Assembly: GCF_035084215.1 (NCBI RefSeq)
Contig: NC_090348.1
Location: 23,932,001 to 23,996,000, forward strand
From: Heptranchias perlo
Taxonomy: Eukaryota
Length of the DNA: 64,000 nucleotides
Direction: 5' to 3'
The translations under genes were made by a program, and so were the position numbers. Each line of letters opens with the position of its first letter. Position 1 is the stretch's first letter. A model generated the notes under the pieces. It saw nothing but the letters and a program-made list of their open reading frames with translations, searched no databases and was not told where the DNA came from. Below are positions 4,086 to 64,000 of this stretch, in pieces.

Positions 4086-4182
4086 ATGGAGTTTAATTAA
4101 AGGCTGGCATCAATACATCAACATTGATATCTTCTGTTTTTTCATAATTGTAACAAATAGAACATTGTTTTAACAGCAAAGC

Positions 4183-10170: not shown

Positions 10171-10305
10171 CTGCCAATATTTAATTACACAGATTTAAAA
10201 GAAAATCACCAAGAGCTAAAATATAAATCACAAACAAAAATTGAGTAGCATCCATTAAACCAAAATGATCCTTTGAATTTGACAAGAATGGATATTACAC
10301 AATAC

Positions 10306-10437
10306 CTGTTCACGTTTTAGTTTTTCACGTTTGCGAATAAGTTCAACCAGTAATCGTGCTCTTTCTAGGTCGTGGCGTAGCCTCTGCCAGTACTTCAGCT
10401 GCTCTTTCAAGCCATTTTTCTGTTCGTCATTTGTTCT
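10306..10437 (-). CDS. BRD1: BRD1 coding exon 3 (RTNDEQ...[29 protein letters not shown])
   Basis: 132 nt; BRPF EPC-II-type motif [10 protein letters not shown]; AAG acceptor, GT donor; possible upstream acceptor at 10500. Confidence 0.92.
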
Positions 10438-11595
10438 CTTTTCCAATCCAGGAGGAAGGAGAAGGGGGGAAAAAGTTAAGAATTCAGAAAAGAATTTTCT
10501 CTGTAAAAAAAATAATTGACGAATAACTATGGTAACAGTAATGGATTCAATGTATATGAAAATCATGATTGTTTGTTACTAATTCTCCCTTCGTTCCTAC
10601 ACGTGAAGTACTTTCTTTCACAAAACTGTCTTAGAACAAAATCTACAATCCCTTCCATCACAAGATCTGATTCCTCAAGGAAAGAAAAACTATTATATAT
10701 CTCACTGTAGAAATACTCTTAGGGCTCAATAGTCATGAAAATAATCAAAAATGCATCAGAGTTTAGTTTTCTACAGAGATCAAGAAAAAAACTTATGCTT
10801 AAGAAACAGTTGGATGAAATCCAACTGTAAGATTAAGTTTTATTTATCTAGTGGCCAGCATTAACTAAAAATTAATACAAGCTCAATGAGTTGGTAATCA
10901 ATTTCCTGGTCTCATTTTGGCTACTGCTCCAGACCCCAGCCCATTACTTCTATCTTCCTTTCTCATTCTTTTCTTTTTACACCTCTTGGGACCTCCTCTC
11001 TTGTCTCCTCCCTTTCTTGTTACCGTCATGCCTCCATTCATTTCTCCCCTCTCGGATACTTCGCCCCCACCCAAAACCATACCCTAACCAGTTATAATTT
11101 CTCTACCTTCTTACTCCTGCCTGCCCTCCCAGGCTTGATTCCCTCTTGGAAGCCCACAGCTTCCTGTGTCTCACTGTGCATTCTCTAAAGAGCCCATCGA
11201 GGCATTTGTTGCTTCCTGCTTACCAGCAGCAGTCCCAAGTGCCCCATTCTCTTCTTTCGCCAACCTTCCTACCCAGCTAACTTTGCCAACCTCTTTCCCG
11301 CCCTGCTCACCACAGCACACTTCAAACATGCTGTGCCAAAGCAACCACATCTTTTAAAAATCTTGCTATTTTGTAATATTAGCATATACAGCTTGCGTTG
11401 GAGTATTGAATATCTTTACAGTTTAAACTCAAAATGGACCCTGTGGGAGTCAGCCAAAACAGGAAACAAAAAAGTGCAACTTTCTAGATCAACTACCATC
11501 CCAAATCAGATGTATCTGTACTTTTTCCAAAAACAGCCTGTTTGACAAGTCTCAGTAGTGAGGGAAAGGATAGAAAAACAATGCATAATCTATAC

Positions 11596-11752
11596 CTGTT
11601 GTGTATTTCTCGGAGACTGCAAGTGTGACTGTAAACGTCGAAGTAGAGGTACACCATTTCTTGATTGTCGTTTAAGTGTCCAGTAAACATACAACCTCTG
11701 TATAAACTGTTTTTTTCGTGGCAATGACACCTGACTCATTATTTTGTTTAGC
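11596..11752 (-). CDS. BRD1: BRD1 coding exon 2 ([43 protein letters not shown])
   Basis: 157 nt translated by hand (absent from the ORF track); ttgcAG acceptor, GT donor; [19 protein letters not shown] is diagnostic of BRPF proteins. Confidence 0.93.
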
Positions 11753-12699
11753 CTGCAAAGAAAAGAACTTGTTTTAAAGTAGTTATTTCAGACAATATAA
11801 CAGTCATTAAGATGTCTTGGGAAACTAAGTCCAAGTGGTGAAGATGCTTTATTTAATACTGCACCCTATTTTCTCTTTACTAATTATTTTAGATTCCTTT
11901 TAGTCAGAGCACATTCCCCAGTATTTTATTCTGTGTGGGCAAAATATATTTTGTAAATGTTTATGGATTCATTTAAACTAATAGGAAAGTACTGGAGACT
12001 ATAGTGACCATTTTGGTAATCTTTTGTACTACAAATCCTTTCTCTTACTAGCAGAAATAAAAAAAAAGCCGTGGACAACTAATAGTTTTCGTATAAATGT
12101 ATCCAATAGAACCATGAAGGAAAATGTGAATATGAGGGGGGAAAAAGGAGGTAGAATGAAAAAAAGATGCTTTTTGCATGTTACGTTTAACTCAAAAATG
12201 TAATTTGAATGTTCTTGTACACATACTTGTTTAAAGTAGGGCTCTTAAGGAAAACCAGACTGTGCAATAAAGTTTCTTACTCTACAGCCCAGGTCTGGGC
12301 ACAGCACAATACTGGGAACACAATTATTAATGCACAAATCATAAGAATAAAGCATGCAATATTTTACATGTTCAGACTCATGCAGTAAAGCCACTAGTGA
12401 CCACATAACATGACCAGGTTTGCTTAGGAAAAATACTGCTCAGTAATGCAAGACAGATGTGACTGCTATATGCCAGCTAATTAGAAAGATTCACTAAGGT
12501 CCCAATATAAATCAATTAAAATTTACTTATAACCAGTTCGACTTTATATCTATAACATAGTCCTGTGTGCTATGAGATTACTTATCTGACATCCAGTCTT
12601 GGATGAGCCGCAAATTTCTTCCAGCTAAACATTCAGTAGACTAAAACCATAGTCATTGGCCCACAGCACAAACCCAGTACCCTTACCACCAACTCCATG

Positions 12700-13135
12700 C
12701 CCATTACCCAGCCACTATCTCAGGCCACAACATCCTAATCAAATGTGAGCTGAGCTTCCAACCCCAAATTCCCTCCGTCACAAAGACTGTGAACTTCCAC
12801 CTCTAACATGGACAGTCTCCTCCCCTACATCGGCAAATCTGCTGCTGAAACCCTCATCCACGCCTTTTGTCACCTCTGGACTTGATTACTCCAATGCTCT
12901 GCTGCTTGGCCTCCCATCCTCCACCCTTTGAAAACTACAGCTCATCCAAAACACTGCTGTCCATATTCTATCCCTCACCATGCTCATCTTCTCTTTAAGA
13001 CCCCCTTAAAACCCACCTCCTTGACCAAGTTTTGGTCACTGCTCAGCATCAATTTATTTATTTTTTTTAAACATGTCTGTGAAGCACCTTGGGATGTTTT
13101 TCTACATTAAAGGCCCTATATAAATGCAAGTTGTA
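12700..13135 (+). mobile_element. L2 LINE 3' fragment
   Basis: GAAACCCTCATCCACGCC...GATTACTCCAATGC motif and L2-type tail CTATATAAATGCAAGTTG. Confidence 0.75.
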
Positions 13136-27735: not shown

Positions 27736-28674
27736 TTCTTATATGTAATTTAAAAGCAATGATAAATTTAAGTCCAAAGAAATTACTGTCTGAAACAACT
27801 GCACTTTCAGTTGCGTATTTTGAATTTTGTTATAGGATGATCATAATTGGAGTTGGTAAAAGGTTTTCTTTCTTTCTCTTTTAGGTTAGAAAGGAAGATT
27901 ATCCAAATATTTCACCATAATGACCTAATTAACTCTCTTCTGTTCTGAAGATCTCCATATATTTTTGAACATAACTCTAGACGTTTGGCAACTGAAGGAT
28001 GTGGCTGGCCATGCAGCATTGTACTGTTTTACTACTTGAAACTGAAAACTGCTTGCTCTACAGTTGAAAAGTTGCAAATCCTGCATCGAGTTTACAATCC
28101 AGCCTGCAGTATATGCTTGTTTCCACATACCCAGTGATGGATCATAAATATGTTTAGTCAAATGTCCTGCTTTTCACCTTACACTAGGGAAACTCATAAA
28201 TTACATACTGCTTACATTTTACATCATGATACAGAACAGTGGTGGAATCACTATAACTATTAAGATAAACATCTGTTAAAGGAATGGGAAGGTTGTATTA
28301 CTTTATTTACATTAAATTTCAGGAAGTTGCTTAATCTAGATTTTAACGTAAATAACCTGGAATTTGTGAAGGCCTTGAGATTTATTTCTGTTTGAATAAT
28401 GTTATAAAACAAAGAATCTGATAGTGATAGAATTTACATTACAGTGCATAACCATAATTATTGTGGAAATGTGATTTTAAGTTGCAGTTATTTTGACAAT
28501 GGGGGCGTGGATAGTGGAATCTTAATATATGGTTGAAGTACTGAGGATTGTGCTTTACTTCTGTTTCAAGAAACTTAAAATAGTATTGTCTTAATGCTTT
28601 TAAAAGTAGACAAGTGAAATTACTTTATCTTTGATACAGTATTAAACTATTTCTATTGTAATAGTGCAAAAGTC

Positions 28675-31324
28675 ATGACTAGCCAAAGCGATTGGGAAAA
28701 TTTCACTAACAGTAAAAGCAGCGATGAGAGACATCAGAAGGAAGAAAGTTATAGAACTATTGGTGACAAACAAAGTGATTCTTCATTTACAATGTTCACA
28801 AGCCCTCTTCATGCCGATACTGATATTGATACAGTTGTTATTTCTCTTCCATCTATTAGTGGTGGAGGTTCCAGAAGAAAATCAGCTGTTTGGAATCATT
28901 TTATTATGTCCACTACAGATATTGCCAAGACGATTTGCGTGCATTGCAATCAAGGATTTAGCAGAGGTAAGAAATGGTACAAGTTGTCTAATGAGGCATT
29001 TGCGCGGTCTCATCCATCTGTACTTGTACATGATTGTGGCCATGCTGCAAGTTCATGGTCTCAGCTTTACCAACATTTTTGTCTTCCCTGCGATCTCTAG
29101 CATTTCAGCGGACAATTGAAACTACTACTCAAAAAAAAATATCAAGACGACAAACCTCAGAAGCATTGAATCATTTTACTGTGTGTCCATTAGACTGCAC
29201 AAAGGTGCATTGTCACCGTGTGATAAGCAGAGGAAAGAAAAGGGATAATCTTGGTACCAGTTGTTTGATGAAACACCTATATCGGTATCATGCTTCTGTA
29301 CTTTAGCATAGGAAGGTTCTTGCATTGAGAACATCTCTCGCATATACCCACTCTATGTCCTCCTTACCATCCTGTTCACAAAATTTGGCTACAAATAAAC
29401 CCAGTCTTAGGTTGCCATCTATGGATAATACAGCTGAATACCTTTCATCTGCTGCAACAATTAAACAAGTTGTCACACCTATTAAAAAAAGTCAGAATTA
29501 TGGAAGCATTTTTCTGTATGTTCTTCAGATCTAACCAAAATAGTGTGCATCCACTGTAACTATAAAATAAGTTCAGGAAAGCAAACATCTCACTTGACTA
29601 CGTTGTTTGCTTCGACATCTTCAACAGTCTCATTGTTTTCTTGTGCAAATGTTTCATTTTCACCACTTACATTTCTATCTCATCCCTCTGTTTCAGAGCT
29701 GCCATTTAGAACACAACTTAGAGCAGCAGCCTCTGAGAGCAATAATGAATGGACTTCTCTACTAAGTGCCAAAAAAAATTACAAGCCTAGTTGCTGAAAT
29801 GATAGCACTAGGCCTCCAGCCATTTTCTGTTGTGGAGAATGTTGGATTCAATAGGTTGCTATCATATTTACAGCCACAATATTCCTTACCATCTCCATCT
29901 TCTCCAGGATTGCTGTGCCAAGAATGTATGAGTGTGTGAAGGAAACTATAGCTTTACATCTGAAAGAAGCAGAGGGTAGAGTAGTGCATTTTACAATTGA
30001 CGTATGGATAAGCAACCAAACTAGGGCATACATGACACTAACTGCTCAATGGGTAACGTTTGATTCTTCTATATGTCCACCAAATCAGAAAGATTATCAC
30101 TTCTGCTTTACTAAATGTATTACAGATTGACTGTGACTACAATGGTATAAGCATCCAGAAGCGTCTGGAATCTTTGTGGGCAGCTTGGATTGCCTCACCT
30201 GGCCTTGAGATTGGTTTCACTGTTGCTCATAATGAGCAATAGGTACTGAAAACACTGAGGAAAGTGGGCGTGCAGTTATTCACTGTTTTGCTCATAGTAT
30301 TAATATAATTGTCAGTGAAGCCATCAAGACTCAGTGAATCATTCAAAATCTTCTCAGTGTTGCATGGTAAGTGTGTGAACAAATTTGTCACTCACCAGAA
30401 GCAAAAGAAAGGCTAGATGAACTACAAAAAAATATAATTTGCCTCGTTGCCGACTGATTCAAGACATTCCAGTTAAGTGGGCCACCTCATTTTACATGCT
30501 CGAACGTCTTATTGAGCAAAAGGCTGTTGAAGAGTTATCCCTGGAGTACAGTTTTGGAGAACTTATCCACCATGATCATTAGCAATTAATGGAATCTATT
30601 TGCCACATGCTGAAACCTTTTTGAAGTTGCAAGTAAAGAAATGAGCATCCTGATTGCAGCACTTAGTCAAGTAATCCCACTAGTTCAAATTCTGATGCAC
30701 AAGATAGGTAATTTATTTGAGGAGACCGTAGGCATTGACTATGTTAAAGTCTCTGAGGGAAGCAATGGTCTGCTGCTTTTCACCTGCACTTCACGGCCCA
30801 AAGCGTATCTTCATTATAAGACATCCATCTTTGTAGGGAAGAAAGCTGAGCAGTATAGGCAGGAACTGATTAATGAGGTTGAAACTTTTTATTATACCTT
30901 GAAATGGGATGATAACTTAGATGCTACTAGCGGTATCTCTGAATCCTCTTCAAATAAGACATTTGATGATTGTGAGGATGATTTGTGGTCACTCGTGTCT
31001 AATATAAAAATGGCAGCAGTGGAACAGGTTACCATACAAAAGTCGCCAGAGAGAATGGTATTAGAGTATTTTGAGGAACAGATATTTGATCAAAGCGGTG
31101 ACCCTCTACTTTATTGGAAGCTGAAAAAGACTGTCTGGCCAGCGCTTGCAATGGTTGCGGATATTTTCCTTGGGTGTCCTCCTTGTGCTCTTGCTCCTGA
31201 AAGAATATTTAATACTACTACTGACAATTCCAGTCTAAATTATTCAAGGCCACTGCCAGAAAATGTGGAAAGACTCCTTTTTTTGAAAATGAACCTGCTA
31301 TTTATATTTCAATATCAACACTGA
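28675..31324 (+). pseudogene. ZBED4: ZBED4 unitary pseudogene (three recognisable BED fingers plus hAT transposase-derived body and C-terminal dimerisation domain)
   Basis: [78 protein letters not shown] and FLKMNL spread across shifting frames; nonsense codons at 30335, 30368 and 30580; syntenic position. Confidence 0.92.
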
Positions 31325-36968: not shown

Positions 36969-37218
36969 TTATCCTTTTCTCATATTCTCATGATGTGTGT
37001 ATATTTTTTCTAATGCCACTAATTTTATTTCAATTTTAATGTAAAATGGAGGTAGTTGAGATATGTTAAATCCAATTCCACTAAAGCCAGAAATATTAAA
37101 CATTATTCTATGGGTGTTTCTGTACCGCGATACATAGGTTGGGTTCATTTCCATTAGGTAGTGTGTATGTGCATTACTTTCAACATCTCCCGGCTTAAGA
37201 TCTTCCCTCTTATCATAC
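36969..37218 (-). CDS. ALG12: ALG12 last coding exon (YDKREDL...HTHYLME...stop)
   Basis: ORF 36969-37229; TAG acceptor; YDKRED motif of ALG12. Confidence 0.92.
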
Positions 37219-37432
37219 CTATATACCAAAAGGAAAAAAAAAAATCAAAATTACAGAATCTTTTCATAGTAAAACACTAAAACAAATTTAAGCCAGATTT
37301 TTTGAATTTCTTTATAACGCAATATCAAATTTAGAGATTTTAAAACTACTAGTCCTGAACCATTTTTTTCTTCCCAGTAAAGACAGTTATGTCCTATTTA
37401 TGGGTGGAATTCTTGAATACTCATGGACGTCA

Positions 37433-38125
37433 TGGGGGAAAAGTTCGATAGGCCTATTATTAGGCACAGGTAGCGTGATCCGCTATTAACCCGCGCCCAA
37501 TGGCCCCTGCGCAGGCAGGACAAGAACTTTGTCCTGCCTCAGTACTCACAGTCAATCTGCATTGAAACCTAGGCCTTGCATGTCGATTCAATGCAATTTG
37601 CACTTTCCACTAGCAGGGGGAGCCCCAATCACTTAAAAGGGAGGATGTCTCTTCAAATCTCAAAGATAGCCGGTACATGTTATTTGCTAAAATAAAAATG
37701 GTCTGCTGTCTGCACAGAGTTTGAACGGAGATCAGACATCGCACACGTAAAACACAGATGCAGGTCCCGTCCTTGTATTTACACAATGATGAGTTATGTT
37801 AAGACATTGAATAAAGGTTGCGCATTACTAAATCCCAATCCTCCAATCTGCATGCCAGACCTTGCCAATCTGAGTTGGTATCAGGCCTGCAAGAGTGCGT
37901 GCACCAAGGTTCTCTGCTGATGCACTACAGGCCTTGGTGCAAGAGGTGGACAGAAGGAGGGACATCCTATATCTGCGGGTTGGGGGGGCAAATGGCCCTC
38001 CAGACATATGCCCAAAAGGCAGTGGAAGGCAGCAGGGGACGAAGTCAATGTCAGGCGCACAGCACCACAAAAATGGATACAGTGCAGGAAGAAGTTCAAT
38101 GCTTTGACACGAGTGGTCAATGAGT
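37433..38125 (+). mobile_element. Harbinger transposon 5' portion with Myb/SANT-like DNA-binding ORF remnant
   Basis: RAPRFSADALQALVQEVDRRRDILY, then after a frameshift QWKAAGDEVN...WIQCRKKFNAL; G-rich left terminus. Confidence 0.75.
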
Positions 38126-38544
38126 GGGAACCCATGCTGATTCTCCTTTCCCCCCACCCCAAAATTAGGGACGTTGATGCTAATTGCATCTTCACTGCCA
38201 CCCAGGATTTGAACCTTTAATTTTCTACTGAAAACATTGGTATAAAATTTTCATTTGCAACATCATACAAAACAAATGTTTACTGATTCTGATATGGACA
38301 GTAACATTATACATTTGTTCGATGGTTGGTCTGAGCTGTATCATTAAAAGATAAAGAAAAATGGACAAAATAGAATACAAATGAAATGAATGGAGGGGAA
38401 CTGGAGAACAAAAGGATGGGAGGGTGTGGGGGTATTAAGCAACAAACATGGCAGATTATTCCAAGCAAGAGAAGGCATTTGCTTCATTGGAAAATTCTGG
38501 TTACTATTAAAAAAGTGTTGAATATCCATTAGGAAATAACTCAC

Positions 38545-38620
38545 CTCCAACTTCGATTGAGTTCAAGAAATCGGGAAACACCGGTCTGTGCAGAAGCCAC
38601 ATCAATATGCACTGAAACAG
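38545..38620 (-). CDS. ALG12: ALG12 coding exon 8 ([24 protein letters not shown])
   Basis: 76 nt, CAG acceptor, GTGAGT donor; [14 protein letters not shown] motif. Confidence 0.95.
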
Positions 38621-38934
38621 CTGCAGGGAAAGATGAAGGTGAGAGTGATGCTAGGAAAAATCCCCTCATCAAACATTCACTTGACAATAATTTCAGAACC
38701 ATCATTAAGCAACATTCTGCTTTCAATATGATCATTTAATGAAATCAGAATGTATAGGATATAGAACATACTGTGTTTTAAAAACAATCGAAGCCACCAA
38801 GAGTTAGTCATAAAAAACAGGTGACAAGAGGCAAAATAATTTAAGACTAAGGAAATATTATGAAAAATGTAGAGATATTGACTGTAAGATAAGTGGAATG
38901 ATCATGTTATACTATTATTTTGTTTACATCAAAG

Positions 38935-39222
38935 TCCTACAAACAGCAAATGAATGATAATCTGTTTTTTGTGGTGTCAGGTGAAAGAGGAACATTAACC
39001 AGGACCAGGACACTGGGAGAACATTTTTTTTAATATCCACCTATACAGGCAAACAGGGCTTTGAATTAGTTTTTCACCTGAAAGAAGGCTATTCAGACAG
39101 TGCAATACTTCCTCAATACTACACTGAAAGGTCAGCCCAGATTATGTGCTCAAGTCCTTAGTGTGGCTTGAACCCACATCATCTGATTCAGAGGCAAGAG
39201 TACCAACTGAGACAAGTTGACA
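38935..39222 (-). mobile_element. DeuSINE / SacSINE1-like SINE
   Basis: Reverse complement resembles the 44709 copy; tRNA-like head with GGTTCAAGCC B box. Confidence 0.7.
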
Positions 39223-39755
39223 CTTGTTAAATCTGTAATGAGCTACTTACAATAAGCAGAATATTTGGACAGGCATGTACAGAGCACAATTCATGTAAAT
39301 GCAGCATTTCCTTTCTTTAATGTTGTTATATCAATCTCACTGCAGTCAAACCTATGATCTTGGTTTGCCTATATCTTAATTTGCAAAGGCTGACATTAGG
39401 CATCCCCTAAAAGGAAGACACCACTAATAGTAAATGGACAACCTGTCCAAACTAAAAGTTGTTACCCCTGAATTTATTTTTACACAATTGTAAAATTGGT
39501 GTCGATAAAAGATTCAATATCCTGCGGTGCCCGCTGATCGTGGGAAACTTGTAATGAACCAGTGGATACCACATGCTCGTATACCACAGTCACCTGGGCA
39601 TGTACTAAAGATCAAAACATGGGTAAGCAGTTGTAGCAACCTCCCCAGTCACCTTCCACATCCTGCATCTGTGTACAATGGATTTCACTAGGTGGTTGGA
39701 TTTCACTAGGCGGTTTGCCTATATCAAGGTTTGTTATCATAGCAGGGTTACAGAC

Positions 39756-39925
39756 CTGTTGTTGGAGGCAGAGTTTCATGTAGCTTTTGCATAGCGACTC
39801 CACCAGGGTAGTTGTAGTGGGATATATACAGTAGCATCCCAGTGTAGCAGGCATTTGCTACTAGATGTGCAATCACAGCAAAGGATCCTAATTTGTACAG
39901 AAAGGATTTACGGTAATTGATCATT
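39756..39925 (-). CDS. ALG12: ALG12 coding exon 7 ([14 protein letters not shown]...[15 protein letters not shown])
   Basis: 170 nt, CAG acceptor, GT donor; NYPGG motif. Confidence 0.95.
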
Positions 39926-39984
39926 CTGTGCAACAAAAGAAACATGAGTAATTAGTGATGTGCTTTTACTACTCATTACACTTA

Positions 39985-41060
39985 GGAACACAAGCACAGG
40001 AGTAGGCCATTCAGGTCCTCGAACCCATTCCAACATTTAATCAGATCTTGGCTGATCTGTACCTCAACTCCAATTACCCGCCTTTCTTTCAAGTCCCTTC
40101 ATACCCTTACCCAAAAAAATTCTATCGGTCTCAGTCTTGAAAATTTCAATTGACCCTACCATCCATAGCCTTTTGGGGGAGCGAGTTCTGGATTTCCACT
40201 GCCCTTTGTGTGACAAAGTACTTCCTGATTTAACTCCAAAATGGCCTAACTCTAATTTTAAGATTATGCCATCTTGTTCTGGATTCCCCCACTGGAGGAA
40301 ATAGTTTCTCTGCATCTACCCTATCGAATCTCTATCATTTTAAGAACACAAAGAGATCACCCCCTAACCTTCTAAACTCAAAGGAATAAAAGCCAAGTTT
40401 ATGCAACCAGCCCTCATAATTTAACTCTTTAAGCCTTGATATCATTTTAGTGAATCGGCGCTGTATCCCTTCCAAGGCTAGTATATCTTTCCTGAGGTTG
40501 TGCCCAAAACTCAATGCAATACCCCAGACGGAGTCTGACCAAGGCTCTGTACAACTGAAGCATCACTCCTTCACTTTTAAATTCCAACATTCCATTAGCC
40601 TTTTTGATTACTTTTTGTACCTGTGCACTAGCTTTTACTGATTTATGTACATGGACACCTAGATCCCTTTGCTTCTCCACAGCTCCTAGTCTCTCACCGT
40701 TAAGAAAATATTGTTTTGATTTTCTCAGATCCAAAGAGGATGACCTCACACTTTCCCCCCCCCCTGTTGAACCTCATCTGCCATAGTTTTGCCCACTCAC
40801 TTAGTCTGTCTATGTCCCCTTGTAACTTCCTGCTCCTATCCATGCAACTTACTGTGTCTCCTAACTTAGTGTCATCTGCAAACTTGGATATACAACTCTC
40901 TATTCCTTCATCCAAGCCATTAATATATAGGGTGAAAAGCTGAGGCCCCAGTACAGATCCTGGAGAACGCCACTTGTCACATCTCACCAATCAGAGAATG
41001 AACCCTTTATCCTTACTCTCTGTCTCGTATCTCCCAACCTTTTGTACCGGCCCATGTCAT
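39985..41060 (-). mobile_element. Decayed CR1 LINE
   Basis: ORFs 40064-40990: GSVLGPQLF, KFADDTKLG, RDLGVHVH; CR1 3' tail near 39990. Confidence 0.9.
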
Positions 41061-41688
41061 AAGGCTACCTCCAATTCCGTGCACTCTTTTGCGCCCTTAT
41101 ACAACAATAGTTCATAGATACTGGGTATCATTCCAGTTCATCCACAAGCACAAAACGGGTAATTTTTTCTTCGACTGCACTAGGTTTTTATAAAGACTGG
41201 AGCTCAGAAATTTGTTTCTCATTTCTCTCTATATAATATAAAAAGTTAGAGCACTTTGCCATCCTGATTGAAACTAATGCTGCAATAGAATATAAATTAT
41301 GCAACAAGGGTATAAATAAAATATTGTACATTCCCATACAAGGTCTTTGCTTTTTTTTCTTTATCCATCTCAGTCTTTTCCAAAAGTAATTAAATGGGCA
41401 CCTATCTGCCCCTTTGGTTGGGGAATAATATTTGGAGCAGGATTATTATGAGGGAAATAATAATGAGAACAAATTAACGCATACTTATTCAGTGTTGCAC
41501 AGCTAGATAGAAATCCTTACAGCATATGCCAATGCGGCCTTAACGATCCTAATAAAACATGCTAGTAATGCAAGACTAATTTTATTGCACTATAAATGTC
41601 TAAAATCACCTATATAACATTCGCTTTACAAAAAGTGCAGTCAACTTAAACTCTTGACTTTTTAAGGACAATGTAATTGAATACTTAC

Positions 41689-41912
41689 AGGTATGAACAC
41701 CCTATTGCTGCAACGACATTCAAGACAGGAAAAGTGTAGATTATGAAGCGCAACTCCTTGTGAGGTAGGAACGAATACAAGAAGATGAAACCAAGTGTCG
41801 GAAAGAGTAGCCTCCAGCTCCTCCGGTCCCGAGCCCCAAGAGGCAGAAAAATTATACTGCAACCAAGAGCACGAGGCAGTACCGAATAAAAATACCAGAA
41901 AAAGGGTGATGT
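41689..41912 (-). CDS. ALG12: ALG12 coding exon 6 ([17 protein letters not shown]...[21 protein letters not shown])
   Basis: 224 nt translated by hand; PHKELRF motif of ALG9/ALG12/PIGB mannosyltransferases; preceded by a U12-type branch point; GTAAGT donor. Confidence 0.95.
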
Positions 41913-42619
41913 CTAAAAACATTCTCAGTCAAGGAAACACAAAAAATTGTAATCTGTTACTTCAGCCATTAAACTCAAAAAAAAATCATAGCATCTTATA
42001 GCACAGGAAGCAATTCGGCCCGTTGTGCCTTTAACGGCTCTTTGAAAGAGCTGTCCAATTTAGTCCCACACCCTAGCTTTTTCCTCATAACCCTGCAAAT
42101 TAGTTCTTTTCAAGTACGTGTCAAATTACCTTTTGAAAGTTCCTATGGAATCTGCTTCCACCACCCTTTCAGGTAATGCGTTCCAGATCTTAACAACCCT
42201 CTGTGTGACATGTATCTACATTTGAGGAGCCAGCAAGTAACACTGCAACTATTATTGTGCAAATTTACAGTCTATCTAATGGAAATCAATTAAAATTAGC
42301 CAAGTATACTGCAGGATTATCAAGCCCATAGAACTGAATTTAGCCTCAAACTTGAAATAGTCACCTTTTCAAATTTCCTTCCAGTGACAACTTCCAAGTA
42401 CTCCCAGGTCAGATATGGTATGGATTAGATGCAGAGAAAAGCTCCCTCGTCTCTGTTCCAAAAATGTGTTTTTTTCCCCACAGGAAGTAGTAGGCAGAGT
42501 GACATTTCCCAGATCTGCCATACTTGTGGCTCCCTGAAGTCAGATTGCCAGTGAGTGCCAAATTATGGAAAGTTTTATGCTGTGGATTCATGCCCATTAG
42601 CAATTAGAATGATTGCACA

Positions 42620-42742
42620 GGCGCTTATGGCCAGAAGGCAACAGAGATTTTTGTAACATCGGTCGGTCTGCACTGGATTTGAACCCCCACCCAAGAGGTA
42701 AAAGGACAGGGCGTTTAACTCATGGCACCAACTAGTTCCACT
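42620..42742 (-). mobile_element. tRNA-derived SINE head fragment
   Basis: Minus strand has an A-box-like TGGTGCCATGAGTTA and B box GGTTCAAATCC; no complete cloverleaf seen. Confidence 0.45.
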
Positions 42743-43354
42743 AACATCACTGCTAAATTTAAACATTTTTTTTTTAAAAAAGCAATCTGTATCTCAAAGC
42801 AATTCGGTACTGAGAAGCACAACACTTTGTTGAGTAATTCACACTTCTCTGAATGAATCAGAACGCCACAGTTAGCACCTTGATAAATGCAGTGAGGCCA
42901 CCATTTTTAAGGGTAAATTTTACGATTACGCATTCCCGGCACATAGCTTCATCTGCCAGAAATTGCATATAAGGAATCATGCACTTCTAGCTCATGATTT
43001 TTGGCTTACTAATTTTAATGGATGGAAAATCATGGACTGCACACACCCAATTTCCTAAAATGTGTTCCCAGCAGGCGAGGCCATTTCAGATGCATGCAGT
43101 TAGAAAATTTACTCTTAAAGGTTTATCAAAAATCTTAAAATGTGACAAAACTTTGTAAACACTGAGTTACAATTGGGGTGAAATTGCTGCCTTCATTAAT
43201 TTTAGGGTAATGCTGGTGTAAAGTGGTAGAAAGTGGTAGAAAGTGACTCCACCCACATAGCTTTATAATTACTGATTATCCTCAAAGTCATATGGGAAGT
43301 AAGAGCCCAATAATTTTTTTCTCTTGAACCTAATACTGACAATATAGAGATAAT

Positions 43355-43597
43355 GGGGGTGATTTTAAACCCCAAGAATGGGCGGGTTGGGGGCGGGTGG
43401 GAGTTGAAAATAGTTGTTTTTTGACTCGCGACCGCAACCCGGCTTTATTTCCGGGTTTAACGTCTGCGCGGAAAAGTACAGGCTTCCCACCGGGAATGCA
43501 AAGTCCGAACATTTTGCGGTCGTGACCCAAAAAGACAACTATTTTCAACTCCCATCCGCCCCCAACCCACCCGTTCTTGGGGTTTAAAATCACCCCC
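43355..43597. mobile_element. MITE (PIF/Harbinger/Tourist-like), 243 bp, with long terminal inverted repeats and 3-bp TSD
   Basis: GGGGGTGATTTTAAACCCCAAGAA... / ...TTCTTGGGGTTTAAAATCACCCCC; arms about 80 bp; AAT on both flanks. Confidence 0.9.
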
Positions 43598-44050
43598 AAT
43601 GAATGTCTGGGAGTAATCATAAAGGCAATAATCTGATTGCACGGATGAGGTGGTATCATACAAGCTCTCGTGATTTATAACCTTCAGTTAAACTCCAAGA
43701 TAAGATTTTAGTCTGGAAATCATTCTAGTTCGTGTTGATTTTTTTTTTGCTGGCAACTGCTGTTATGGTGACGCCAACAGCCTTTGCTCTTCATGTCAAT
43801 GTGTGATTACACTCGCATTGATGGATGAACCATTATTAAGTTGCAAGTTATCGAGAGATAATCATCGATTGCATGGAAATAAGACAGTCAGCGTATCTCA
43901 TATTTAGCCTAATATGTAGTAGGACTGTATTTTGTTTAAACTATATATTCCCAGTGAAGTCAATCACATTTAAAATAAACATTTTCCACTTTTTCTGAAT
44001 TTGCTTTTGAGTTCTTCTATAGTGTAATCTGAAGGCTGCAAAAAGGATAG

Positions 44051-44154
44051 TCCCCATTTGGAGCTCTTATTCAAGACTGTGTTGTACCAAAGTACTTCTC
44101 CCTCAGGCCATAGGAGGCGTCTCCAAAATATAGAATCCACACACACAGTTAGAC
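44051..44154 (-). CDS. ALG12: ALG12 coding exon 5 ([34 protein letters not shown])
   Basis: 104 nt translated by hand; WPEGxVLWYN motif; tttcAG acceptor; followed by a U12-like donor. Confidence 0.93.
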
Positions 44155-44258
44155 CTGAAAGGAAACATGCTGGAATGTTAATAGATGTGTTTATTTAGTT
44201 GCATGGACAAGTCTTTAAATTCAAGTCCCTGTCCAAGAACAAACAGTATGTTACTTAC

Positions 44259-44453
44259 CCAACCACACTAAACCAGCTGGTACTGCATGGCACAGACTTC
44301 TGAAAACAGAAATATGATGGTTCACTAATGATAGCAGCAGCATGAGGCCCAGGAAAATGCAAAGTTCGGATCGGAACACAATGATAGATAAAGCAGAAAG
44401 CCAGATAAAGGTGCCATGGTTCTGCTGCATCCAGGCAGTAAAAGCCAAGAGAA
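44259..44453 (-). CDS. ALG12: ALG12 coding exon 4 (LLAFTAW...[13 protein letters not shown])
   Basis: 195 nt, CAG acceptor, GTAAGT donor; ORF 44251-44484. Confidence 0.95.
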
Positions 44454-44708
44454 CTGCAACAAAGATGAAATATACAACTGTCAAATTAGTGTGCTCCTTA
44501 CAGGCTACATGCCTATAAAAATGTTACAAGAATTTTTTTAAACCTTCGCTTAATTTGCACATCAACATTTAATCCATTAGAGCAATTTAAAATTTTTATT
44601 TAGTCCAGCATAGTTCCATTGTTACATGTACGGGCTCGATGGGCTGAATGGCCTCCTTCTGTGCTGTAACCATTCTATGTATGTATAATCTCACTCACCA
44701 CCTTCAGG

Positions 44709-45160
44709 TGTCAGCCTTGGCTCAGTGATAGCACCTTCTCTGAGTCAGAAGGTTGTGGTTCAAACTCCACTCCAGCACTTGAGCACATAATGTAGGCTGA
44801 CACTATGCTGCAGTACTGAGGGAGTGCTGCACTGTCAGAGCTTCCGACTTTCTCGGATGAGACGTTAAACCGATGCCCTCTCTGCTCTGTCGTGGAAATA
44901 AAAGATAGCATGGCACTATTCAAAGAAGTTTTTCTAGTTTTCTGGCCAATATTTATCCCTCAACCAATGTTACTAAAAACAGGTTATCTGGTCATTTATC
45001 TCATTACTGTTTGTGGGACCTTGATGTGTGCAGATTGGCTGCCATGCTTCCCTACATTACAACAGTTACTATGCTTCAAAATAATTTAATTGTCTATTAA
45101 GTGCTTTGGGGCGTCCTGAGGTTGTGAAAGGCACTATATAAATGAAAGTTCTTTCTTTTT
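44709..45160 (+). mobile_element. Near full-length tRNA-headed DeuSINE (SacSINE1-like) with L2 tail
   Basis: A box TGGCTCAGTGATAG; B box GGTTCAAACTCC; Deu-like core CAGTACTGAGGGAGTGCTGCACTGTC; tail CACTATATAAATG. Confidence 0.8.
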
Positions 45161-45660
45161 GTAATATATTGGATTTCAGTCTATTAAGCTTCTAATTTCA
45201 GGTGATACTGTATAGTAGGTGTAAAAAATGGAGTCTGCTCCAATCTGAGCCTTCTGTATCCCCCCCACCCCCGGTTCTGCTAAGGTTTGAGCCATATGAT
45301 AGAAACCACTTCAATTTCATACGTTCCATTATTTTACTGTGTTTCTATGAAATGTCAAGAAGCACTAGGAAAGATTATGAATGGTGCAAAATAAATATAT
45401 TTCCATCACTACACTGTTTCACTGTATTTAAAGAGATTGTTAATAAATATATTATAAAAGCGCTCTCAACTTATTGCCAAAATGGAATTATATACACTCA
45501 TATTTCAGAATTCATGCTATTTTCTGGACATTACTATCCCCACTATAAATATGAAATATAGTTCATACACTTCCAAGTTTATTGTAGTGGCAAACCAGGT
45601 TACAGTAGACCCCATCTCCACAAAAGAATAAACAGTAAAGAATTACGAAGCTACACTCAC

Positions 45661-45834
45661 CAATAGGAAATGCAAATATATTTGGGAGGGTTCTTGAGCA
45701 GTAGAAGAGAAGATGAAACTGAGTTGCTGAGATCCAACAGTAGAAACAAGCTACTGTTGAGCCAAACTGTTTCCTAACTTCTTTCTGAAGCTTCCACAGT
45801 GCATAAATCACACAGAGACCCAGGCATCCTCGGA
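45661..45834 (-). CDS. ALG12: ALG12 coding exon 3 ([13 protein letters not shown]...[18 protein letters not shown])
   Basis: 174 nt, CAG acceptor, GTGAGT donor; FYxSRTLPN motif. Confidence 0.95.
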
Positions 45835-45927
45835 CTGTTTAAAAAAAAAACAAAGGAAGGAAGCTGAACACAATTAAATATGCTTTTGTTAATAGCAATT
45901 ACATCTCTGGTAGATTTAGAACACTTC

Positions 45928-46160
45928 AACGACAACTCGTACTTATATAGTGCCTTTAACATAGTGAAAGGTCCCAAGGCTCCTCACAGGAGCAATTATC
46001 AAACAAAATTTGACACCGAGCCACATAAGGAGGTATGAGGACAGGTGACCAAGAGCTTGGTCAAATTGATAAGTTTTAATGAGTGTCTTAAAGGAGAGGG
46101 GTAGAGAGATGGAGAGGTTTATGGAGGGAATTCCAGAGCTTGGGGCCTAGGCAGCTGAAG
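45928..46160 (-). mobile_element. L2 LINE 3' tail
   Basis: Matches the L2 3' ends at 25456 and 47010. Confidence 0.75.
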
Positions 46161-47009
46161 ATCAAAATAAATGGAGCACATAGTCCAGTTAACCCCCTAT
46201 TTGTCAACTGGAACTACTCATTAACAAGAAATTCTATCAATTCTTCCACTTTCAATTCTCTGGTACCCACTGACTTCCAGATTATACTTGTTAATAGAAG
46301 AGAGGCCATGTCGAAAAATAGGAGCAAGGCCATTAAGATAGCATAGGGTTAAAACTCAATTTTGTGTCAATATTATGCAATTCTTAAAAGGCGAGAATTT
46401 TTGTGATTTGAAAGTACAAGCCACGAAAGGTGCTTTAAATGATCCTCCATAGCCCATGAAAATAAATAGCATCCTTTTTACTAGGTCAGTGGCTGATTGA
46501 CACTTATAAGGAAATGTTTCCTCCAACAGCCTCTTCGATTGACAAGTTTTGCAACATGTAATTATTTGATCACAGTTGGGTACCTAGATATATTATCACT
46601 ACAAACCTCATCAATAAACATTCCAAAAGCCTGGAAAGGAATATTTTTTCACAAGTTAAAAGAAAAAGCAAAGCCCAAATCTTGAAATAGGTACATGAGG
46701 TAAACAACATAGCTTTTGATGTCTGATGTGAAAAAGGCATTACTTTATCCCATTTTGTAAGTTGAGTTAATTTGGGAAAAGATTAGTTGGAGAAAGTAAA
46801 CAAGAGAAAGAGAGCTTTCTGTCTTACTCTATTCAGAGAAAGAATCAGTTAGCCAGAGGCTCAAGCTAAGGTTGAAAGGAAAGGAGTCTAAAGTTACTTA
46901 GTTTAGTTGAGAGAGAAAGAGAAGTCGATCTTGCAGAACTGATCAGCTAATTCCGTAATATATGGTACAAAAGATATAGAATAAATGTATAAATACATGA
47001 ATTAGATAA

Positions 47010-47500
47010 ACAACAACAAACAACAACTTGCATTTATATAGCGCCTTTAACGTAGTAAAACGTCCCAAGGCACTTCACAGGAATGTTATCAAACAAAATT
47101 TTGACACTGAGCCACATAAGGACAGGTGATCAAAAGCTTGGTCAGAGGTAGGTTTTAAGGAGCGTCTTAAAGGAGGAGAGAGAGATAGAGAGGTGGAGAG
47201 GTTTAGGGAGGGAATTCCAGAGTTTAGGGTCTAGGCAGCTGAAAGCACAGCGCCAATGGTGCTGCGATAAAAATCGAGGATACGCAAGAGGCCAGAATTG
47301 GAGGAGCTCAAAGATCTCGGAGGGTTGTAAGGCTGGAGGTGGTTACAGAGATAGGGAGGGGTGAGGCCATGGAAGGATTTGAAAACAAGGATGAGAATTT
47401 TAAAATCGAGGCATAGCCGGACCGGGAGCCAATGTAGGTCAGTGAGCACAGGGACTTGGTGCAAGTTAGGATTCGGGTGATAGAGTTTTGGATGAGTTCA
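47010..47500 (-). mobile_element. L2 LINE 3' fragment with (TTG)n tail
   Basis: ORF 47231-47464: VLTDLHWLPV...FKILILVFK. Confidence 0.88.
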
Positions 47501-47717
47501 AATTTACAGAAGAGAGAGACAGAAGACCAGGAATAACTGATGATTCTGGAAGACTCGCAGAAGGCATAACCTAGATGACATAGCCAGCCCACTGTAAGAA
47601 AAAACAACCGCAGATTGGTGTAGGAGAGGATTCAACTTTGACTCAATGGTGTAACCACTTCCAGACAAGGAAGTCATAAGCCTTTTTACTGATACCACAG
47701 ACTTAAAAAAAAGACAG

Positions 47718-48722
47718 CTTTTTTTTTTATTCGTTCATGGGATCTGGGCATCGCTGGCAAGGCCAGCATTTATTGCCCATCCCTAATTGCCCTTGAGAAG
47801 GTGGTGGTGAGCCACCTTCTTGAACTGCTGCAGTCTGTATGGTGAAGGTTCTCCCACAGTGCTGTTAGGTAGGGAGTTCCAGGATTTTGACTCAGTGACG
47901 ATGAAGGAACGCCAATATATTTCCAAGTCGGGATGGTGTGTGACTTGGAGGGGAACGTGCAGGTGGTGTTGTTCCCATGCGCCTGCTGCCCTTGTCCTTC
48001 TAGGTGGTAGAGGTCGCAGGTTTGGGAGGTGCTGTCGAAGAACCCTTGGCGAGTTGCTGCAGTGCATCCTGTGGATGGTACACACTGCAGCCACGGTGCG
48101 CCGGTGGTGAAGGGAGTGAATGTTTAGGGTGGTGGAAGGGGTTTCAATCAAGCGGGCTGCTTAGTCCTGGATGGTGTCGAGCTTCTTGGGTGTTGTTGGA
48201 GCTGCACTCATCCAGGCAAGTGGAGAGACTTCCATCACACTCCTGACTTGTGCCTTGTAGATGGTGGAAAGGCTTTGGGGAGTCAGGAGGCGAGTCACTC
48301 ACCGCAGAATAGCCAGCCTCTGACCTGCTCTTGTAGCCACAGTATTTATGCGGCTGGTCCAGTTAAGTTTCTGGTCAATGGTGCCTCCCAGAATGTTGAT
48401 GGTGGGGGATTCGGCGATGGTAATGCCGTTGAATGTCAAGGGGAAGTGGTTAGACTCTCTCTTGTTGGAGGTGGTCATTGCCTGTCATTTGTCTGGCACA
48501 AATGTTACTTGCCACTTATCAGCCCAAGCCTAGATGTTGTCCAGGTCTTGCTGCATGCGGGCACAGACCACGTCATTATCTGAGGGGTTGCGAATGGAAC
48601 TGCACAATGTGCAATCGTCAGCGAACATCCCCATTTCTGACCTGATAATGGAGGGTAGTTCATTGATGAAGCAGCTGAAGATGGTTGGGCATAGGACGCT
48701 GCCTTGAGGAACTCCTGCAGCA
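47718..48722 (-). mobile_element. Non-LTR retrotransposon (CR1/L2 clade) 3' kilobase with poly(A) tail
   Basis: GVPQGSVLCP, FADDCT, HSLHHRRTVAAVC; ends AATAAAAAAAAA. Confidence 0.85.
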
Positions 48723-49624
48723 ATATAAATGCTATTGTTTGCTTGATTATTCAACTACAAAAGACTATACAAAGTGTAATCCTTCAAACTGAAATTCTAA
48801 AACCGAGCAATGTTACCTTATGTTAAATTAAACTGTACTCTTGCAATTTCAAAACCAAGTTTTTGTACTATTTGCGATGGTCACACCGATAACCATGATG
48901 TCTTTGCACACATAGAGTTAAGAAAATAAGTGATGGTACAAAAACAACGTTGTGCGCCATTCATTCCTTCATCTCTGGTAAGCCAACAATTAAACTGTTT
49001 CCAATCAATGCTGAACTTTCTTCAGGTGACTGGCAGAATATTTCCTTATCATTCAGGTTGGCAATTTAAGACAACCCAATAAGCCACATTTGGCACCACA
49101 CATTAAACTCTAGACATACAAGATAAATTCCAATATATTTTGTTTATTGATTGTGGCTATTGGGAAATTAGAATTTTCCTAATCATCCTCATCTTAATGT
49201 GTAGTTGATTCCCAAAAAATGAATATCCAGTCCTAACACAGGCAAAAAGAGCATTTCTACAGAGACGGTGCAGTACAACCTACTACTCTTCATGCATGTG
49301 CCAATATTAACAGTTTTCTTGGGCCACAAACAGGATTAGGAAGTGAAAGCCATGCCCCGATGAGCTGAACCAACAATATTCAGGAATCATTTCCATTTGA
49401 TTAGAATAGGATTTTTGACAAGATGTTCAGTTACTATAATGATTTACACACTTAAATAATAAACTAGATCAAATATTGAAAGTATTTTCAGTGAGGCAGA
49501 AGCAGAGGGTGCAGAGAGATTCCTGATGTGGTATCAATAAGATCACAGCACTAGCTTTATACTCCATGGGGTGTTAGTCAAATTGGAGTGAGAGTGCCTC
49601 CTTCAGCGGGTCTCACATACTGTT

Positions 49625-49795
49625 AGGAACATAGGAACAGGAGTAGGCCATTCAGCCCCTCATGCCTGCTCTGCCATTTGATAAGATCATGGCTGATCTG
49701 TGATCTAACTCCATATACCTGCCTTTGGCCCATATCCCAAAAAGCTATCTATCTCAGATTTAAATTTAGCAATTGAGCGAGTATCAATTGCCGCT
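49625..49795 (-). mobile_element. CR1 3' tail fragment, same family as 26763-27172
   Basis: Reverse complement is close to 26990-27170, with an internal deletion. Confidence 0.8.
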
Positions 49796-49902
49796 TTTGC
49801 TGTTCACTACAAAAGTGGCAGCATAACTGCAACCTATAACAGATCACTTAAAGAAATGTATATTCTTAGTTATAGTAAAAATAGATGCCTATATTCTATA
49901 CA

Positions 49903-50039
49903 TGATGTGGAGATGCCGGTGATGGACTGGGGTTGACAATTGTAAACAATTTTACAACACCAAGTTATAGTCCAACGAGTTTTATTTGAAATCTACAAGC
50001 TTTCGGAGGCTGAGGAAGGAGGAAGCCTCCGAAAGCTTG
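49903..50039 (-). mobile_element. Penelope-derived mini-element with hammerhead-ribozyme core and 13-bp TSD
   Basis: Same terminus as the 25574 element; TSD TATATTCTATACA at 49890-49902 and 50040-50052; CTGAGGA-A-GGAGG-AAG-CCTCC-GAAA at 50010-50034 on the + strand. Confidence 0.75.
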
Positions 50040-50232
50040 TATATTCTATACAGCATATAAAGGGTTCTAATCAAACTATTCCTTGTCTGGTTTAATGCAA
50101 AAAAAAAACTAATTATAGTTTTTGCAGAATGTGCTTCGATCATTTTTCCCCTCCAAGATTTTTTTCTCACTTTCGAACCCAACTGCATTGACTGCAGTGC
50201 ACGACGATTTAACCTGAATTAGACAGTCATAC

Positions 50233-50365
50233 CTAGAAGCTGCGAGTAAAACTTGGACACGTCAAGAGCCGAGAAGATGGAAGCTGCTGGTGCAGATAGC
50301 AAGGAAATAAAAAGCGGCCCCACGAAGGTCCTTGGAACAACACCGGGAAACTCGTGGTGATCGTA
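50233..50365 (-). CDS. ALG12: ALG12 coding exon 2 ([17 protein letters not shown])
   Basis: 133 nt; poly-T plus TAG acceptor; GTATGA donor; [14 protein letters not shown] motif. Confidence 0.95.
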
Positions 50366-50499
50366 CTACAAAAAAAAAAATGCCAACGAAAGAGCTTCAC
50401 ATCTTTCTCAGGGAGAATCAGAAATTGAAATAATAAAAACAGGAAGAGACGCAATGCGCCCAGAGGAGCTGGTGAACAGCCTCTGGACCCAAGGCCTAC

Positions 50500-50664
50500 C
50501 TTCTCCAGGTGCAGGCGGTGGTAGAGCAGATCGTGCGCCGCTTGCAGGTTGAAGCTTTCCTCCACTTTAGTAAAAGGACAGCTCAGCAGGTGGATGGAAG
50601 CGGCCAGAGTGACGAGCGCCAGAAGCAGCAGCTCCCTCTGCACAGCCCCGCTCCTCTCAGCCAT
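50500..50664 (-). CDS. ALG12: ALG12 first coding exon (Dol-P-Man alpha-1,6-mannosyltransferase; [14 protein letters not shown])
   Basis: GCC-adjacent ATG at 50664 opening ORF 50233-50664; [10 protein letters not shown] motif; GTAGGC donor; the nine exons total 1491 nt. Confidence 0.95.
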
Positions 50665-61620: not shown

Positions 61621-63747
61621 AATGTAAAAAGCTTGCATGTTACATTTTAACAAAATGATTTCTTTTACAGTGTTAATGCATTAACTAACCTGTTAATAGT
61701 TTAGTGGGCCCCTTGTATAATGTAATAGTGTTACCAAGAGCCATTTGATTATGTTGAGCTGTGTGCAAAGCATGACATTGACTGGCAGACACTGCACTAG
61801 AGGTAGATTAATTCCAGGGTGAAGACCACACATTATTAAAGGCAACCTGAGTGTAGTCCTTGAAACATGAAATTCTTGGCAGTCAAATGAGGTTTCAGTG
61901 AAACCCAGGAGCAAAATTCCTCTGAACAAAATACTAAATGGTTATTTTCCCCCAGAATGAGTGGTCTGGAAAAGACCAGCTGGTCCATCAAGCATCATTC
62001 TCCGAAACCACTTGTTTCAAAGCCTTATTTTCCTACAAATCTATTAGGGGGTGATTTATGGAGAAAAATTAGCATTCTTCCACTTTTTCTTAAAAGAAGT
62101 TTTCCTGCAACCCCCCACCCCAAAATCACTTGATCTACTGATAAATTAAACTGACAAAAGAATTGAGAATGAGAGCAAAGCATTACAAAGCCAACCAGAG
62201 CAAAACTGAGGTAGATACAACATTGCAGACCAGGCCTACGGATCAATTTAGGAGTTAGTATTCAATTCAAAATAATGTATAACTTCTCTGTACTTTCATC
62301 CACTTCTTCCTCAATCCAAATTCTAATATGCCACCCAAGTCCCTCCTAAACAGCTATGGAAGGCCTCCTAGTATGAAATTTTGACATACAGCATGCTTTT
62401 GATGTATCAAAACGAGATCACTTCAACACGCGATCATTGAAAGTGAGTAGAATTTAAAATGGGGTGTAGGCCACCTGTAAGGTCATACCCCCTGAATAAA
62501 TAGAAGCTGATTACAGTTCTCACTATTGAACTGTATTCAACTAGTTGGAGCAGGCTTGCTGAAGTGACTGGGGAGGGAGATTCCTTTTGCTGTGTTGTCT
62601 TTTTCCATAACTATGAAGACTGGTCACACTTGTTATGAATGAACTCTTTTTTTCCTCTCACTTCAATTTTCTGACATCCTCTCCAGGGGGCATTGGTTCA
62701 TGCTGGGGTACGGTTTCACAGGTGCAGGCTGCCCTCAGTACCTCATCCATGTGGCCATTTTTTCAGGTATGAGCCTCAATGGTGAGTGTCAGCTTGGCCG
62801 TTTGATCCTCTTAGCCGTACGCACTTGCACACTTTCCAGCAGGGGTCACCGGATAGTAATTAGCAGCAGTGTTTCCCACCCCTTCCCTATCCAAGGGGCA
62901 TTGATGCCAATTGAAACACTCCTATTGCACTCATCACCCTCCTCAGCAGACAGATCTGTATGCTCAAATGTCATATTTTCCTAAATGAGGTATCAGTGGA
63001 GCTGCTTCTATGTTTTATGCATTTAGAATCTTTATAGTCATAAATGTACATTGCTAACAATCTGCAGAACTAAAACATATCTGCAATATCTAAATATTGG
63101 CATGGAAAATATTTTTATTGCCTAAATTACCCTGTATGATCTTCATATTTGCTGCAACTTCAGAAATGGGAATCCTAAAATTAGGACTTGAGCAGAAACA
63201 TTTGTGATTTTCCTGTCTATTGATGCAAGTACAGTAGACATTCCTGAGCTTTACTGTGGAACAGTTCCATGTTCTTTAGATGGGATTGAGTGAGCCTTCC
63301 TGATGGCTGTGGATAAATGCAGTGTGTTGTAGTACTGAGTGATATGGATCAAGTAACCCTTTCTGTGTGCTAAGCTGATTTCAGCTAGGATAGCCATGGG
63401 AGCCCAGTACATTTAGCTTCAGTGTGCATGGGCAATAACCTGGGTTTCTGCTTTTGATCACTGTCTAGTGGCCTCTGCTGGTAACTGCATGTGTGTGCAT
63501 GTTAAGTAATGAGGATCAGGTTCAGTTGTAATATTTCCCACAGTCAAACAAAAAAGTTGCCACTACTCCTCTTGTGAACTCAAAGACTAGTCACTAGGAG
63601 GGGGTATTAAAAAAAAAAAAAATCTGTCATTAGCTGGAACTATACCCCACTCTGCAGAGCTTAAAATTATGGCAAAGGGTAATTTGATGGATCCAACCTG
63701 TGTTTCTGAAGTGACTACTTGTCTAATACAGCTACCTATTATTTTAG

Positions 63748-63924
63748 GATGTCCTGGTGGTGCAGATAGGCCCTGCAATGGGCATGGTTCATGCGATGGT
63801 GATGGTACACGGACTGGTGATGGCTCTTGCAGCTGTACAAATGAGTACAAAGGAGAAGAATGTTTAGACTGTGCTGCTGGCTACTACAGTGAATTCCGGA
63901 ATGAAACCGATTCAGTCTGCACAG
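63748..63924 (+). CDS. CRELD2: CRELD2 coding exon 5, EGF-like/furin-like Cys-rich region; gene continues beyond the right edge
   Basis: ORF 63669-63941 (CPGGADRPCNGHGSCDGDGTRTGDGSCSC); 177 nt, TAG acceptor, GTAAGT donor. Confidence 0.95.
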
Positions 63925-64000
63925 GTAAGTTTCTGAGCTGAAAATGAAAGTTCTTTCACATACTCAATGGCTGCCAGGCACTTTTTTGATTTGTCGTTAC

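Follow-up and report, generated by a model that had tools for sequence, protein, structure and literature searches.

An accurately excised CT-AG intron with U12-type signals in ALG12 of the shark Heptranchias perlo

Introduction

Minor introns are described as splicing productively with a restricted set of terminal pairs, namely GT-AG, AT-AC, AT-AN and GT-AT, and the combination of a first C with a last G is absent from the pairs given in the passages available to us (PMC1557818, PMC4176328). For human minor introns, the part of PMC13602164 that holds its Table 1 gives ten pair types, none of which starts with C, and all nine human +1 variants in the available part of PMC7507305 are G>A or A>G. 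A natural U12-type intron with CT-AC ends was described in Trappc9 of mouse and rat (Lin et al., 2010; PMC2831892), and CU-AC was found to splice correctly at lower efficiency (PMC2831892, repeated in PMC8199999; both cited from excerpts). The survey of animal minor introns by Larue and Roy (2023), as far as its Table S1 and neighboring passages go, counts 54,669 GT-AG, 16,044 AT-AC, 658 AT-AG, 24 CT-AC and 2 CT-AG introns, the last amounting to 0.003% (PMC10639083); we derived a total of about 73,700 from its statement that 54,669 represents 74.207%. ALG12 is absent from the supplement of that survey, and its two CT-AG entries could be the shark ALG12 intron that we report here.

Human ALG12 is listed among minor-intron genes, as a preliminary description of the shark locus had stated, and its minor intron was retained at 8% in controls and 38.5% in Roifman syndrome, minor introns being commonly retained (Merico et al., 2015; PMC4667643, in part). 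How the first intron base is read, and why A-start introns behave differently from G-start introns upon loss of CENATAC, are treated as unresolved in the passages of a 2025 review (PMC11874965).

No publication that names a CT-AG U12 intron, or a shark ALG12 intron, emerged from our literature search. No CT-AG minor intron appears in the excerpts of PMC7367187, PMC11347168 and PMC13149111, nor in the passages of a preprint that had been chosen on other terms (bioRxiv 10.1101/2023.12.22.573053), and CT-AG pairs of human SNPs and transcripts are given without a U12 label in PMC2882926. Per-intron databases and supplements outside this search may already hold the shark intron.

Here, we analyzed a stretch of 64,000 nucleotides from Heptranchias perlo (NC_090348.1, positions 23,932,001 to 23,996,000; hereafter the window), in which the preliminary description had proposed a natural CT-AG minor intron in ALG12.

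Results

ALG12 occupies positions 36969..50664 on the minus strand of the window as nine coding exons, located by tblastn of two stored proteins (P0001 and P0121), and no in-exon stop was seen. These exons match letter for letter the NCBI protein of Heptranchias perlo (P0121), apart from alignment overhangs at exon edges, and P0121 in turn matches PDB entry 9s6t_A with an E value of 7.7e-226. The two exons that flank the fifth coding intron match Pfam PF03901 at adjoining profile positions (222-253 and 254-332), the match of the upstream exon, which is short, scoring under the curated cut-off. The gene is a full-length ALG12 orthologue (GT22, PF03901) in which the junction peptide is conserved. 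No retrocopy was found, since the downstream exon has a single match in the 3.25-Gb genome. GT..AG candidates are available for the other seven coding introns.

The neighbors of ALG12 in the window appear in an order that we take to be that of human chr22q13. BRD1-like exons (EPL1, PHD and bromodomain) lie on the minus strand at about 1900-20235, and an EGF-laminin exon, probably of CRELD2, lies at 63591-63938 on the plus strand. Separate short frames at 28618-31321 (plus strand), located between ALG12 and the BRD1-like gene, encode two BED zinc-finger pieces and a hAT dimerisation domain. This copy looks fragmented; the corresponding place in humans presumably carries an intact ZBED4.

The fifth coding intron of ALG12 runs over 2138 nt on the minus strand, from 44050 to 41913, and is laid out as CTATCCTTT...TTCCTTGAC...TAG. 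The upstream exon (44051..44154), which has contig cover in all three RNA-type runs described below (records 20 of X5, 26 of X9 and 8 of X23), ends in phase 0 with the peptide NKSSKWG, its last codons AAA TGG GGA closing at 44051 and being followed by CTATCCTTTTTG; the first letters of the intron, read from 44050, are CTATCCTTTT. The 5' splice site CTATCCTTT (44042..44050) is, as had been claimed, the U12 donor consensus RTATCCTTT in every letter except for the C at +1, positions +2 to +9 (TATCCTTT) being exact. The U12-type branch site TTCCTTGAC lies at 41936-41928, also where it had been described, with a predicted branch A at 41929 (-17). It is followed by 12 nt, by the 3' splice site TAG (41913..41915), and by ACA TCA CCC, with which the downstream exon (41689..41912, starting TSPFFWY) opens; an AC is thus located 2 nt downstream of the TAG (41912-41911). 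Given the base composition of the intron, the probability of finding TATCCTTT at its fixed position is 2.8e-5 and that of finding TTCCTTRAY over 15 allowed positions is 3.5e-4, and the presence of both motifs at these places is far beyond chance. A second donor-like and branch-like pair in the window (61205 and 60438) was taken as chance: all three frames of its upstream flank are interrupted by stops within 120 nt, and the pair falls in no recognised gene.

The assembly and an unspliced contig (record 19 of run X5) both have C, not a purine, at +1, which places the intron outside the GT-AG and AT-AC subtypes. Termini do not define the U12-type class (PMC3584512, in part). The junction, GGA/CTATCC, shows no U2-type (GTRAGT-like) donor and no GTRAG nearby, the only GTRAG in the exon and intron being at 43009. 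Removal by the major spliceosome or by a hybrid U2/U12 route could draw on the short T run and TAG at the 3' end, and cross-talk between the two spliceosomes appears in titles of the literature. With a donor devoid of GTRAG, and U12 donor and branch motifs that are near-perfect and common to the orthologues described below, we consider such a route very improbable, and dependence of this intron on the minor spliceosome is what we infer.

The reading frame leaves little choice of splice sites, in agreement with the preliminary description. Read-through from the upstream exon meets a stop after 26 codons. The GTs of this extension (43989 and 43980) are out of phase with 41913, so that no in-phase GT rescues the frame there, and use of the in-phase GTs of the exon (44095 and 44077) would remove 15 or 9 codons. 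An acceptor anywhere upstream of 41913 would keep the TAG in frame as a stop.

Evidence for splicing comes from contigs. Four of the 24 listed runs were compared: X5, X9 and X23, which come from three studies and from organisms A, B and D respectively, and X17, also from organism D. The first three were guessed to be RNA by the tool and X17 to be DNA, none of the 24 runs being recorded as RNA. The sample of X5 is that of the best-matching DNA runs and is not an independent animal. In all three RNA-type runs, contigs join 44051 directly to 41912, skipping 2138 letters with CT..AG ends and no letters shared between the two sides; this is the in-frame WG/TSP junction that had been predicted, with both ends of the joint exactly where expected. 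One contig of X23, 1769 nt long, spans three exons. The adjoining ordinary GT-AG intron (44155..44258, minus strand, 104 nt), which served as an internal control, is likewise bridged in the three runs. Of the 20 joints in X5, X9, X23 and X17, the 15 that are listed include neither an AT-AC nor a CT-AC joint. Run X17 is unspliced across the acceptor (41600-41985), without a joint, the upstream exon and the donor being uncovered. These results confirm that the CT-AG intron is real and accurately excised at the ends defined by its motifs, and that it carries all the U12 features that could be tested except a purine at +1.

Non-canonical junctions are often artefacts (PMC4176328, in part), and the joint could in principle reflect an assembly error or template switching by reverse transcriptase. 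The same base is found in a separate library, the joint has no direct repeat, and three studies agree on a position that is orthologous to that of other introns, leaving this explanation with a negligible probability.

An alternative placement that the preliminary description had missed is the same intron shifted by 2 nt (44048-41911), which has AT..AC ends, equal length and equal phase, and of which the product reads WG-L-SP. In its favor are the canonical terminal letters, reached with the phase unchanged, and the NCBI protein P0121, identical to the exons of the window, which reads WGLSP as the shift predicts. Judging from this protein, the public model most likely follows the AT-AC placement, and the expectation that standard annotation would mis-model the intron was borne out. 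The two placements give different mRNAs and transcripts can therefore decide between them: in the spliced contigs of all three runs, 44051 is connected to 41912 without any letter common to the two sides, and X5 lists no further letters at the joint. In addition, the shifted donor ATCCTTTTT lacks the RTATCC motif, and the junction residue is T in chicken ALG12 (PDB 9s6t) and in 221 of 248 protein entries. It is close to impossible that the intron is truly AT-AC.

The identity of the first base is supported by unspliced contigs. Record 19 of X5 (43572-44080), a contig of the same organism as the window, spans the donor, shows 0 differences and thus carries G on the plus strand at 44050 (C in the donor). 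The C or T on the plus strand that would have spoken against the preliminary description was not seen there, and the C of the donor is neither an assembly error nor mainly edited. C-to-U editing before splicing would create a TT-AG intron. Conversion of AT-AG minor introns to GT-AG by A-to-I editing has been published for NUP210 and CRYZL1 (PMC4176328, in part), and TT-AG is counted 10 times among animal minor introns (PMC10639083, in part). Editing is nonetheless most unlikely here, because the unspliced contig reads C without any difference and U at +1 would still be non-canonical.

In organism B, record 25 of X9 (43733-44080) crosses the donor with 11 differences. The only G>C change in the whole of X9 is at 43186, and the +1 base of organism B is therefore not G. 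The same contig stops exactly 30 nt into the exon, which fits a +1 base that differs from the first A of the next exon and so argues against A. From these change counts and this contig end, +1 in organism B would be C or T. The exons of organism B differ from the window at 13 of 524 letters (2.5%) and those of organism D at 26 of 515.

These observations also bear on the idea that the animal is heterozygous, a GT (or AT) allele making the spliced mRNA while the C allele is splice-dead. The +1 base was read from the assembly and from contigs; contigs drop rare variants, and unspliced ones would contain too little of an allele that is spliced fast. On the other hand, X5 shows no G>C change at all and its record 19 no difference, organism B, which is 2.5% diverged in exons, is also not G, and protein models of three further genera show the same signature (see below). 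We hold a heterozygous animal to be very unlikely, and the C donor is presumably homozygous.

Contigs lying within the CT-AG intron were found at 42179-43383 and 43572-44080 in X5, at 43138-44080 in pieces in X9, and at 42226-43057 in X23, whereas the 104-nt GT-AG neighbor has no contig depth beyond the share of its exons, a difference that hints at slower removal of the CT-AG intron. In X5, the intron has a contig depth of 12.6-17 and the upstream exons have one of 26, contig depth being no measure of expression. The intron may be rate-limiting for the expression of ALG12, as the preliminary description had suggested. The final ~75 nt of the intron (41913-41987) have zero contig depth in X5, X9 and X23, much of the rest being covered; this gap may stem from simplification of the assembly beside the repeat described below, from lariat RNA, or from cleavage inside the intron, and the only AATAAA is at 43449.

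Two elements have inserted into the intron. A high-copy repeat (41986..42213; depth >1e4 in all runs) is located upstream of the branch site, at a distance of only about 50 nt, and is missing in organism D, where record 1 of X17 joins 41985 to 42214. A MITE-like element with inverted arms of 69 nt (43351..43596) is missing from a contig of organism B (record 22 of X9), which aligns on either side of it. The two mobile-element insertions are lineage-specific.

The ancestry of the intron was addressed by a metagenome search with a pattern made of the exon end followed by N-TATCCT, which leaves +1 free and in which orthologues that lack the motif or have been converted to the U2 type cannot appear. 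It found 57 loci (35 distinct), every one of which starts with GT and none of which is shark-like. All 28 distinct loci that have the next exon in reach carry, at the same junction, a U12-type intron with GT-AG ends whose U12-like branch site lies between -12 and -17, the next exon being 42-67% identical to the shark protein where readable. Because distant eukaryotes carry GT-AG at the same position, GT-AG is the ancestral state and the C is derived.

Protein models provide a view of other vertebrates. Among the 248 of 262 stored proteins that are readable at the junction residue, L follows WG in 4 of the 41 entries of cartilaginous fish (4 of 23 species, from the genera Heptranchias, Cetorhinus, Mustelus and Narcine) and in none of the 207 others, and V (12 entries) and I (11 entries) occur only outside cartilaginous fish. 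The other 19 cartilaginous-fish species read T, which fits a correctly modelled CT-AG intron and a canonical one alike. An L produced by the 2-nt shift needs C or T at +1, and a true change from Thr to Leu would take two substitutions in a residue that hardly varies at all; as far as protein models can tell, the L of these four species suggests that a pyrimidine start is more widespread in cartilaginous fishes. The four genera belong, we assume, to four separate orders, a distribution that favors an old change.

Many of the V and I entries come from models that read through the donor and thereby reveal the first intron base. VSF (GTATCCTTT), implying GT, is found in models of Lerista and Castor, and ISF (ATATCCTTT), implying AT, in Gymnothorax, Liparis, Polyodon, Acipenser and Huso; the ray-finned fish models that read through ATATCCTTT are P0039, P0152, P0161, P0162, P0163, P0166 and P0168. 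Two models of Polyodon differ here, with HQE-V in P0168 and HQE-TSP in P0039. The Thr codon would thus be immediately preceded by AG, and the orthologous intron of the paddlefish is probably AT-AG. Models of Sphaerodactylus (P0045), Euleptes (P0054) and Haliotis (P0241) have WG-V-SP and WG-I-SP junctions, which may come from the same 2-nt shift, hinting at non-canonical ends, or be true substitutions.

The genome contains U11, U12 and U6atac above Rfam cut-offs, and the 5' recognition stretches of U11 and U6atac match the Rfam consensus. U6atac has at least three near-identical full-length copies (L003, L004 and L005) among 11 matches, and U11 and U12 have one match each; copy L004 carries a G-to-U change in its AAGGUUAG stretch. 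Base pairing of donor positions +2 to +12 with the U11 and U6atac of this genome is predicted, as is pairing of the branch site. By the same calculation, which is a crude test in that shark snRNAs are placed on foreign introns, the predicted pairing of the shark intron is equalled or exceeded by only 5 of 28 orthologues for U11, 5 of 28 for U12 and 9 of 28 for U6atac. The zinc-finger exon of SNRNP48, the one exon of this gene that was checked, matches human 48K (E 1.5e-12) with several substitutions. No change in the recognition machinery was found in the 5' regions of U11 and U6atac.

Discussion

Our results indicate that the fifth intron of ALG12 in Heptranchias perlo is removed precisely with CT-AG ends, likely by the minor spliceosome, and that the C at its start was probably fixed in place of the G of an ancestral GT-AG minor intron. 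We give this reading a probability of roughly 0.87.

A mechanism can be proposed from what is known about recognition of the donor. The first three bases of the intron are not paired by U11 and are read by 48K (PMC3584512, in part); recognition of positions -1 to +4 falls to SNRNP48, SNRNP35 and stem-loop III of U11, whereas +5 to +10 are recognised through base pairing (PMC11874965, in part). U11/U12 would jointly recognise the intact donor from +2 to +11 and the branch site, the +1 base being sensed through protein and non-canonical contacts and not through pairing with an snRNA (PMC3584512, PMC11874965). We propose that C at +1 is tolerated because this position is not base-paired and the remaining signals are near-optimal. 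The first AG past the branch point would close the intron. Splicing would then be accurate and probably slower than with G, and a fraction of transcripts may keep the intron, meet the stop after 26 codons and be degraded.

The preliminary description had called U12 introns relatively tolerant of changes in their terminal nucleotides. For position +1 this was an overstatement: the pairs described as productive are AT-AN, GT-AG and GT-AT, and CU-AC splices with lower efficiency. Dietrich et al. in 2005 reportedly found a C or U at the 5' end to be highly deleterious.

A broader hypothesis is that sharks and rays all inherited from their common ancestor a fixed minor intron that starts with C and ends with G, in a glycosylation gene present as a single copy. 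The first base would then be G, A or C across vertebrates with AG constant, and either the context would dispense with the first-base check and with pairing of the first and last bases, or elasmobranch spliceosomes would have relaxed the check, making this a third, C-type subtype that throttles ALG12 output. We advance this tentatively and regard it as possible, if on balance doubtful.

Being spliced accurately although its first base is C and its last is G, this intron is a ready-made natural substrate for the question of how the first base is recognised, and it has a bearing on the way in which +1 variants in human minor introns are judged. The finding also matters for annotation. A false Thr-to-Leu is present in public ALG12 models of Heptranchias perlo and probably of three other elasmobranchs, and any survey that relies on such models would score the intron as AT-AC. 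Minor introns with a first C may for this reason be missing from current counts.

How does the shark intron compare with known systems? Human ALG12 provides the same gene with a minor intron. The AT-AG and other RT-RN U12 introns of Sheth et al. (2006), in the passages available, resemble it in their non-canonical ends, their frequent automated mis-mapping and their one-base subtype switching, but all start with a purine and were collected by a screen built around purine starts (PMC1557818). The intron of Trappc9 shares U12 motifs, C at +1 and orthologues with canonical ends; it differs, in the part of the report that we consulted, in ending in AC and in being known from database inspection in two rodents. 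The shark ALG12 intron instead has G as its last base, a junction in contigs of three organisms and GT-AG as its ancestral form. The two CT-AG entries of Larue and Roy have the same terminal pair and are, in the available tables, counts given without gene, species or RNA support. Although it is still one intron, and minor introns starting with C are already known, the shark CT-AG intron is rarer and better supported than the C-start precedents cited here.
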